A stretch of DNA of 64,000 nt from Clostridiaceae bacterium (GTDB lineage: Bacteria; Bacillota; Clostridia; CAYPLH01; DUMO01), in the NCBI GenBank assembly GCA_012839865.1, contig DUMO01000013.1:1-64000 (forward strand), in the 5' to 3' direction. Numbering within the stretch: position 1 is the first letter of the stretch; each line of letters opens with the position of its first letter. The notes below the pieces were generated by a model. That model was not told the DNA's origin and ran no database searches. It worked only from the letters and a program-made list of their open reading frames with translations. The position numbers were made by a program, and so were the translations under genes. Positions 50,611-52,116 of this stretch are shown piece by piece.

Positions 50611-50837
50611 GTAAACTGACTATTATTTCTTCCAAAGATATGGCTAAAATATTGGAAAGCCTTGGATTTAAGGAGATACGCCAGAAAGGAAGTCATAAAA
50701 GTTATAAGCACGCCGATGGAAGAACTACAGTTGTTCCATTTCACGGAGAAGATTTGGGAAGGGGTCTTATTAGAAAAATATTGAAAGATATAGAAATAAC
50801 TCCTGATGAGTATGAAGAGTTGCGGAAACGGATTTAG
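50607..50837 (+). CDS. hicA: HicA-family toxin (YcfA-like mRNA interferase)
   Basis: LESLGFKEIRQKGSHKSYKHADGRTTVVPFHG is the HicA signature. It overlaps the hicB stop by 4 nt. Confidence 0.8.
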   Translation: MSKLTIISSKDMAKILESLGFKEIRQKGSHKSYKHADGRTTVVPFHGEDLGRGLIRKILKDIEITPDEYEELRKRI

Positions 50838-52116
50838 TATGGTCTTTAAAGAGATGTCGGAGTGCCACCCTACCGATTAATCTAACTCGATAGTTTAAAT
50901 GGACCTCCTTTTTTGGAGGTCTAAAGCTGGATATGAATACGCTTCCATGTTCCTTGCTGTATTTGATGCCGTTGTCAATCAGATTAATTAAGATGGTCTT
51001 TATGCCTTCCTTATCGCCCCAGAACTCCAGTGCCTCATTTTTCTTTATGCATAAGGCAATACCTTGTTTTGCGGTTTTAATACCCATACTTTTGCAAACT
51101 TCATTTATCAGAAGGTCCATGCTGAACTTTTCAATTTTCCTGTATTTATCGCTTCTTCTGTAATAGGATATGTCAAGAAGAGAGACTACGAGGTTATACA
51201 TTCTGGTGGATTCTTCATTAATCAGTTTTATATATTCTTATGTTTTTTCATGCATGGCCAGTTCTGTATACCCTATTATCGTTGTCAGGGGTGTCTTCAG
51301 TTCATGGGTTATATTTTCATAAAAGTGTTTTCTGTAATTGCTTATATTCTCTATCTGCTCCTTGTCTTTTCTGATCTCCTCCGTCTGGTTTGTGATTCTC
51401 TGCTTCATAATATTAATATTGTTGGCAAGCTGGCCTATTTCATCCTGTGATGCAACTTCCAGGGACCCGTCGAAGTTGTCTTCCCCGATTTTTCCCACAA
51501 ATTCCTTGAACTTCAGTATGCTTTTTACGATGTTATTGGAGTTGATTACAGATAAAATGACAATCATTACGCCTAAAACAAGGGAGAAATATAATGCAAT
51601 TGCCGATACCCTTTTCTCCATCATTATAAGGTTTGTATAATCAATAAAATACCTAACCACGCCAATATCTTTGCTGTTGACTTTAATTTTTACCGGGAAA
51701 TCGACTATTACCCTGTCCCCCAGGTAATTAATATCATAGGAGCTTATGTTTTCCTTACTGTTGTCCATACTCTTTCCCAGGAGCCTGTCCTCATCAATTT
51801 CGGGGTTAAATTCCGATTTTTTGGCATAATTGGCATCGTAGATTATCAAGTAATCGTTATAATACCTGCCCAGGGAAAACCTTAATGTATCCCAGAAATT
51901 CTCCTGCGACATGAAACTATCCACTAAGCCGTTATAAAGTTGTTCTGCATAGTCCTGTGTATCCTGGCGAAGTGCCATTAATTCATTTGATATTATTTTC
52001 CTGTTGTTTGCTTTCATATATTTTGACAGGACTATATTTAACAAGCCTAAAGAAAAAATGCAAATAAGTACATATCCGATAATCACTTTATATCTGATTG
52101 ACAATTTCATGCTCAA
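50770..52116 (-). pseudogene. Sensor histidine kinase gene disrupted by an in-frame TAA (plus 51240-51238) and truncated at the 3' end after the N-box
   Basis: 51238-52116 encodes TM-sensor-TM, HAMP and H-box (HELKTPLTTIIGYTELAMHEKT*). The same frame continues after the TAA as EYIKLINEESTRMYNLVVSLLDISYYRR...ILINLIDNGIKYSKEHGSVFISSF. Homology then ends at ~50925, at a GGACCTCC-T6-GGAGGTC hairpin. G1/G2 boxes are absent. Confidence 0.65.

Follow-up and report, generated by a model that had tools for sequence, protein, structure and literature searches.

Probable two-step decay of a sensor kinase gene beside miniature toxin-antitoxin cassettes at the rlmH 3' end in a Clostridiaceae bacterium

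A conserved core, TATCATAA, has been reported for the att sites, at the rlmH 3' end, of staphylococcal cassette chromosome mec (SCCmec) elements and the Enterococcus cassette chromosome (ECC) (PMC6222049). Those elements, together with integron gene cassettes, are the closest described counterparts of two toxin-antitoxin cassettes found in a 64,000-nucleotide stretch of DNA from a Clostridiaceae bacterium (assembly GCA_012839865.1, contig DUMO01000013.1, positions 1 to 64,000 of the forward strand), referred to below as the window. Next to the cassettes, at 50770-52116, lies what is very probably a dead sensor histidine kinase gene, brought down by two successive ordinary deletions. The nearest described process is ordinary pseudogenisation of a two-component system, which this case resembles in that a class I HisKA/HATPase_c kinase has been struck by a small indel and then by a larger deletion while the regulator is intact. 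It differs in that the operon family is uncharacterised and known only from metagenome contigs, and in that both intermediate stages of decay have been captured in sequenced populations, which makes it a clean, dated case of stepwise operon decay with both haplotypes in public metagenomes. Ordinary two-step decay is our account of the kinase gene, which had been flagged in a first-pass annotation of the sequence; the rlmH-targeted cassettes are the part worth follow-up. The features of the kinase locus are these:

52113-52844, minus strand: OmpR-family response regulator, 243 aa, intact, its cognate kinase lost
51241-52110, minus strand: N-terminal fragment of the kinase pseudogene, 290 aa, with a transmembrane segment, sensor domain, second transmembrane segment, HAMP domain and helix 1 of the dimerisation and histidine phosphotransfer (DHp) domain
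51238-51240, minus strand: in-frame TAA, at a 6-bp deletion in the DHp hairpin loop
50922-51237, minus strand: kinase remnant after the stop, DHp helix 2 and N-box only
50921-50922, no strand: deletion junction (2,100 bp lost); the 1 nt of microhomology is at 50922
50901-50922, plus strand: stem-loop of the predicted hicBA cassette terminator, its T-tract removed by the deletion
50770-50921, minus strand: non-kinase tail of a 143-aa chimeric open reading frame (ORF), running antisense across the hicA 3' end and other hicBA cassette DNA

The minus-strand frame from 52116 to 50770 translates with a single internal stop (...GYTELAMHEKT*EYIKLINEEST...). Kinase homology on that strand spans 52110 to 50922 and crosses the stop, without a change of frame, at 82% protein identity to the closest relative, P0001, which bears out the first-pass description of an in-frame TAA at 51240-51238 with the frame continuing beyond it. 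Such continuation of a kinase frame past a stop is far beyond chance. Before the stop, the 292-aa part matches HAMP and only positions 3-27 of the 66 in the HisKA profile of Pfam, with the H-box (HELKTPL) still there in DHp helix 1. After the stop, Pfam finds only positions 1-40 of 111 in HATPase_c, corresponding to the N-box, at E=0.006 and below the gathering score. The window therefore has neither the uninterrupted sensor, HAMP, DHp and catalytic ORF of a functional class I (HisKA) kinase nor a complete HATPase_c domain with its N, G1, F and G2 boxes. With the read-through protein as query, full-length relatives were found in metagenome assemblies only, each a continuous 478-479 aa, at 82% identity (P0001), about 71% (P0003 and P0004) and 55% (P0005), along with P0002, a 290-aa protein 99% identical to the window's N-terminal fragment. 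Among the 5.8 billion protein clusters searched, no intact allele exceeded 82% identity. The orthologues run about 80 residues beyond the window's ...SVFISSF and supply there the G1 (EDxGxG), F (LFKPF) and G2 (SSGLGL) boxes; the ATP-lid boxes had been reported missing from the window, and indeed its last approximately 80 residues are absent.

The TAA is explained by a small deletion, called against four orthologues. Where locus L001 (loci are numbered with the prefix L) reads ACATACAATGAAGAATAT, the window reads ACATAAGAATAT, with 6 bp missing, so that the codons ACA TAC AAT GAA GAA TAT of L001, which have equivalents in L003 and L007, become ACA TAA GAA TAT. At the protein level HEKT-YNE-EYLKLI in the orthologues corresponds to HEKT-*-EYIKLI in the window; residues Y-N-E of the DHp loop are deleted, and DHp helix 2 falls 3' of the stop. 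Loss of six bases, with a junction that makes TAA, accounts for a frame that had been described as continuing perfectly. The first step of the history, which the sequences show, was a 6-bp in-frame deletion between the DHp helices, dropping Y-N-E and fusing TA to A as TAA, by which the kinase gene was split after the H-box.

The first-pass annotation had offered a sequencing error as an alternative, and more broadly the TAA, the truncation or both might be artefacts of sequencing or assembly, with the real gene intact. For this it can be said that the window is probably a contig from a metagenome-assembled genome (MAG). However, the TAA and its context are identical in all ten contigs that cover the site, drawn from JGI (3300022230 and 3300020111), ENA (ERZ925055/56/58, assembled with MEGAHIT) and Logan (DRR066656 and DRR066660) assemblies and representing no fewer than 5 samples or runs, which for practical purposes rules out a sequencing error. 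The lesion is a deletion of 6 bp, with no homopolymer or single-base error, and the truncation junction described below recurs in three runs and two pipelines. We regard an artefact as extremely improbable.

The truncation itself is explained by an undeleted haplotype, reached by exact look-up of the regulator protein. The 30.9-kb contig L189 (JGI 3300020111) shares the TAA and both the parDE and the hicBA module with the window, and it encodes, in order, the regulator, a 290-aa kinase fragment, a 173-aa kinase fragment, a 480-aa gene and then, on the opposite strand, hicA, hicB, parE and the antitoxin. In BLAST alignments, L189 positions 1-11923 equal window 62845-50922 at 99.89% identity, and positions 14024-15325 equal window 50922-49621 at 99.92%, so the window lacks exactly L189 11924-14023, or 2,100 bp. 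The lost DNA comprises 242 nt of kinase sequence (the stop and the 80 codons before it), 71 nt of spacer, the 1,443-nt gene for the 480-aa protein, and a second spacer, of 344 nt, at the start of which is the hicBA terminator's T-tract. The G1, F and G2 boxes gone from the window are located in this segment, and the HATPase_c domain is complete in the 173-aa fragment of L189 (positions 1-109 of 111, E=2e-23). Kinase homology had been said to end after the N-box at a hairpin; this is correct, as nucleotide homology of the window to L002, L189 and L001 alike ends at 50922, just past the N-box, where kinase codon 396 is fused to the base of the terminator hairpin. No trace of the 480-aa gene was found by tblastn anywhere in the 64-kb window, and a 271-aa fragment of the downstream gene from L002, used as a protein query, gave no match at E<=1e-10.

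The junction is present in eight contigs from three runs and two pipelines, and it is absent from both JGI contigs, L002 and L189. The second step, likewise shown by the sequences, took place in one sub-population, represented by the window and the biogas-fermenter runs of PRJDB5067. Both haplotypes have the TAA, which therefore predates the truncation, and both also have the two toxin-antitoxin modules, so that the 2,100-bp deletion came last. This reverses the suggestion that the nonsense codon was secondary decay, and the lesion behind that codon is a 6-bp deletion, not a substitution.

The same haplotype bears on the proposal that insertion of the hicBA and relBE-like (parDE) block cut the kinase and that the nonsense codon followed. 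The proposal draws on the fact that kinase homology stops 84 nt from the hicA stop, right against cassette DNA. It is contradicted by L189, in which both cassettes are in place alongside the kinase 3' end, the 480-aa gene and the spacer, by a breakpoint that lies inside a cassette, between terminator stem and T-tract, instead of at a cassette end, and by the presence of the TAA in both haplotypes. We find truncation by insertion scarcely credible. On the two-deletion account, the toxin-antitoxin modules were in place beforehand, convergent with an untruncated kinase operon, and are not the cause of the truncation.

The hairpin at the junction deserves separate comment, as it had been taken for a feature of the kinase end. 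It consists of GGACCTCC-T6-GGAGGTC(T), starts 64 nt 3' of the hicA stop at 50837, and has a predicted free energy of -18.5 kcal/mol (z=-5.2). L189 and nine other genomes (loci L168-L177) have TTTTT(ATAT) / TTTTTATAT after this stem, where the window has kinase DNA. From this comparison the hairpin is the predicted stem of the hicBA cassette terminator. A natural cassette boundary at 50922 was considered and rejected: complete cassettes run approximately 60 nt further, to a right arm and core, and homology to cassettes of other genomes ends at 50922 because the alignment can go no further than the deletion endpoint in the window itself. As its terminator is without a U-tract, transcription of hicBA may now read antisense into the kinase remnant.

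With TATCATAA cores present, the locus has the look of a site-specific recombination hotspot, and a cassette recombinase might have made the 2.1-kb deletion by pairing a cassette att site with a pseudo-att site in the kinase gene. The breakpoints argue otherwise. The left one is at the terminator stem and not at a core; the hicBA cassette of the window species lacks a right arm and core even in L189; and the kinase breakpoint, between TTCCT and TAAAGCTGG, has no TATCATAA-like motif and only 1 nt of microhomology. A recombinase-made deletion is thus very unlikely. Because microhomology is limited to 1 nt and neither breakpoint has a core-like motif, we infer an illegitimate deletion, probably associated with replication and nucleated at the base of the strong hairpin.

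Several points weigh against this history or limit it. Both haplotypes carry both the 6-bp deletion and the toxin-antitoxin modules, so either of those two events may have come first. The evidence comes from metagenome or MAG assemblies throughout, as contigs rather than reads, and the eight junction contigs all belong to PRJDB5067, which speaks for reproducibility and not for wide distribution. L189 ends 127 nt past cassette 1 in sequence that is not rlmH; either its left context differs from that of the window, or this is an assembly branch. Finally, with only three within-species polymorphisms in the kinase, given below, relaxed selection cannot be claimed on statistical grounds.

An interrupted kinase might still work, either as a split protein with a re-initiated C-terminal fragment or through read-through of the stop. 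In L189 and L002 a 173-aa ORF from MYNLVV keeps DHp helix 2 and the complete catalytic domain, and the ratio of nonsynonymous to synonymous substitution rates (dN/dS) of the kinase against L001 is low, although a low value would be expected anyway if inactivation were recent. Three loop residues are gone, however, the internal ATG is not preceded by a Shine-Dalgarno sequence, and in the window the catalytic domain is physically absent; the within-species changes, moreover, are all nonsynonymous. A G after UAA makes for efficient termination in bacteria. Because the DHp loop is shortened, UAA-G terminates, no internal Shine-Dalgarno sequence exists and the catalytic domain is gone, no function is expected of the fragments, and those of the window are presumably non-functional; a working split or read-through kinase is most improbable.

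For annotation, the 290-aa and 143-aa ORFs should accordingly be recorded as fragments of one pseudogene. The latter, called by gene finders at 50770-51201 on the minus strand, overlaps the 3' end of hicA (50607-50837, plus strand) by 68 nt. Past ...SVFISSF its tail has no homology to kinase orthologues, while the DNA of that tail is 95-99% identical to hicBA cassettes of other genomes. The 143-aa ORF is a chimera of kinase remnant and antisense hicBA-cassette DNA, and is not to be treated as a gene.

The regulator upstream (52844-52113) is followed by the kinase frame from 52110, with a 4-nt overlap region between them. It has the full-length receiver and winged-helix domains of the OmpR family (Response_reg, positions 1-110 of 111, E=1e-28; Trans_reg_C, positions 2-77 of 77, E=4e-25), and the exact protein was found on 15 contigs. 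The earlier view of this regulator as orphaned is supported, inasmuch as it is intact while its cognate kinase is a pseudogene with two lesions; it appears to be orphaned or drifting. In all orthologous contigs the operon order is regulator, kinase, and then a signal-peptide protein of 480-483 aa without a Pfam match (L189 12237-13679, L003 6888-8339, L001 7806-8267), which is an uncharacterised accessory component of the regulator-kinase operon.

Comparison of the window species (as L189) with the 88%-identical L001 gave dN/dS values of 0.24 (regulator) and 0.17 (kinase); for the distant orthologues L003 and L007, dS is saturated, and a lineage-specific dN/dS cannot be partitioned out. A kinase value of only 0.17 means that purifying selection prevailed over most of the divergence, and inactivation therefore appears to be recent. 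Within the species, the kinase shows three differences, all nonsynonymous (D132N, T243M and R318G), and at T243 and R318 it is the deleted haplotype, that of the window, that departs from conserved residues. These numbers are tiny, but the changes would fit neutral drift after inactivation.

The cassettes that adjoin the kinase remnant are part of a tandem array at the 3' end of rlmH, with these features in addition to the terminator stem-loop given above:

49149-49628, plus strand: rlmH, SPOUT methyltransferase, 159 aa, GTG start (SPOUT_MTase, E=9e-60), convergent with the kinase operon
49600-49664, plus strand: attL-like junction, with the last codons of rlmH (...RGETYHK*) and core TATCATAA at 49617-49624, fused to cassette 1's left arm
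49698-50249, plus strand: cassette 1 cargo, with antitoxin (49698-49994), ParE/RelE toxin (49972-50226) and intrinsic terminator (50231-50249)
50273-50351, plus strand: inter-cassette att-like junction, with the right arm of cassette 1 (AGTCATGTATCCAGTAATACACGG...), core TATCATAA at 50304-50311, and the left arm and promoter of cassette 2
50392-50837, plus strand: cassette 2, hicBA, with hicB (50392-50610) and hicA (50607-50837) overlapping by 4 nt

The start of rlmH was assigned from its ribosome-binding site and GTG codon. The toxin of cassette 1 scores above the gathering threshold for ParE_toxin (E=2.4e-6), while its antitoxin, a 98-aa ORF overlapping the toxin gene, matches no Pfam family. 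Cassette 2 has both domains of a type II HicAB system (HicA_toxin, E=4.5e-20; HicB_lk_antitox, E=2.4e-8) in an overlapping bicistron. A 65-nt direct repeat, 89% identical between its copies at 49600-49664 and 50287-50351 and with 38 nt exact, contains the last rlmH codons, a further 36 nt and the promoter, and the inter-cassette junction encodes a mimic of the RlmH C-terminus (...VIHGEPYHK*). The exact 38-nt repeat had no match in a scan of genome_contigs, so that the GTDB species representatives do not include this lineage. In L187 (ERZ925056), a near-identical strain compared over window positions 49605-49616, rlmH ends in ...GGCGAACCGTATCATAAATAG (RGEPYHK*), where the window has ...GGCGAAACCTATCATAAATAG (RGETYHK*). 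The attL copy of L187 is thus identical to the inter-cassette copy, which suggests gene conversion or recombination between the repeats.

Both modules occur elsewhere in the same setting. The exact HicA protein is found in 213 collection blocks, and in all ten of the places shown it is directly 3' either of rlmH or of a parDE cassette placed after rlmH; the exact ParE-type toxin likewise lies 3' of rlmH in ten places. Members of the 90% cluster of this toxin occur in complete genomes, among them those of Pseudoclostridium thermosuccinogenes and Thermoclostridium caenicola. Four arrangements were seen: rlmH-hicBA, rlmH-hicBA-parDE, rlmH-parDE and rlmH-parDE-hicBA. Each cassette is approximately 0.69 kb (window 49600-50922; loci L168-L187), and every complete cassette shares a left arm, a terminator and a right arm, after which the sequence becomes host-specific. 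The left arm (GAAAGGCAGTATTATCCTCATAAC...) holds the -35 and extended -10 elements, and the right arm (AGTCATGTATTCAGTAATACACGG...) ends in the TATCATAA core. At the DNA level the cassettes share 94-99% identity across genomes in which RlmH is 50-65% identical to that of the window and the flanks reach at most 67-81%. In the syntenic loci L168 and L169, the parDE cassette is present in one and absent from the other; this difference, and cassettes 96-99% identical where the flanks of the genomes reach no more than 67%, are indirect evidence of mobility. No relative with an empty site was found among 160 rlmH loci. Searches for loci with RlmH, in genome and metagenome contigs, served only for the survey of rlmH 3' ends; among the matches listed, relatives had at most 65% identity and no same-species loci appeared. 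The window's RlmH is not on record by exact look-up. The hicBA cassette of the window species, even in undeleted L189, has no right arm or core, as no convincing repeat of either was found after hicBA there, and it is probably immobilised in this species.

These cassettes resemble SCCmec, pseudo-SCC and ECC elements in lying at the rlmH 3' end in every occurrence shown, in having flanking direct repeats with the TATCATAA core and a copy of the final rlmH codons, and in forming tandem arrays that vary in order and are shared across species. Unlike those elements, they are only approximately 0.69 kb long and carry one toxin-antitoxin pair with its own promoter and terminator; their hosts are uncultured Clostridia/Acetivibrionales of anaerobic digesters, not Bacilli; and no large serine recombinase of the ccr type accompanies them, as no Resolvase or Recombinase domain appears in the Pfam lists of the approximately 20-kb loci. 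Nor was any recombinase found in or beside the cassettes in those lists, or among the ten largest scanned ORFs of window positions 1-40 kb, and a scan of viral contigs for the cassette arm gave 0 matches. The likeness to integron gene cassettes, including the toxin-antitoxin cassettes of super-integrons, is that both are small, recombinase-less, single-function units in tandem at one site, with conserved recombination-site ends and toxin-antitoxin cargo under its own promoter. They differ in that the repeat here mimics a protein-coding 3' end, that of rlmH, with an SCC-type TATCATAA core. No attC-type imperfect palindrome or intI was seen, though no search aimed at either was made, and no integrase domain was found among the listed genes neighbouring the cassettes. 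In full-text literature searches, no paper was found to connect rlmH with ccrAB and Clostridia, or, outside staphylococci, rlmH with hicA.

On these comparisons the cassettes are probably ccr-less, SCC-like ('pseudo-SCC'-like) mini-cassettes mobilised in trans. It is about an even call whether both modules belong to an undescribed family of miniature recombinase-less cassettes in anaerobic-digester Clostridia that integrate in tandem at the rlmH 3' end and spread between species, with a Ccr-like recombinase presumably acting in trans. In these Clostridia the rlmH 3' end would then be an SCC-like site at which tiny toxin-antitoxin cassettes dock. If this is true, 'cassette chromosome' biology reaches from Bacilli to Clostridia in an integron-like, single-operon form, and, if confirmed, the array would offer a tractable system for the mobilisation of ccr-less cassettes and the build-up of toxin-antitoxin modules at recombination hotspots.

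Further observations concern rlmH ends and their surroundings. The last 127 nt of L189 (15326-15452), to the left of the parDE cassette in window orientation, lose identity to the window inside the core, between TATC and ATAAATAGG; they are either an assembly branch or, in that population, the terminal part of a further element that entered at this core. This segment matched no fetched locus and no viral contig, and an Rfam scan of the L189 island found nothing. Among unrelated Firmicutes, L117, L028 and L034 have repeats of their own rlmH 3' ends at +3.9 kb, +4.5 kb and +1.1 kb past rlmH, respectively, around cargo without a recombinase: a gamma-PGA hydrolase and an epimerase in L117, MatE and Fic proteins in L028, and an AraC/GyrI-like 'Cass2' protein in L034. 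Repeats of this kind with 2 mismatches are unlikely to be chance, while those with 3 mismatches may be.

In the window, a walR/walK-like pair, yycI, murA and a yycJ-like metallo-beta-lactamase gene lie at 28515-39113, about 10 kb from rlmH, and the approximately 10-kb stretch before rlmH holds DUF5305 and S26 peptidase genes and a HisKA_3/GerE two-component pair. In the other cassette-bearing Clostridia seen, rlmH directly follows the yycJ-like gene, and in L172 and L175 it directly follows a gene for an HtrA-type protease (Trypsin/PDZ) that itself comes after the yycJ-like gene. A 72%-identity relative of the kinase operon (L003 at about 8440-8460, L005 and L006) has a remnant resembling an rlmH end and att core, ...CTCGACTATCATAAATGA (DYHK*), approximately 100 nt past the 483-aa gene and convergent with it. 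There is no rlmH at this place; a frameshifted murD-like pseudogene and a short reverse-transcriptase-like fragment lie upstream of the remnant. A kinase operon adjoining an rlmH-type att site may therefore be an old arrangement.

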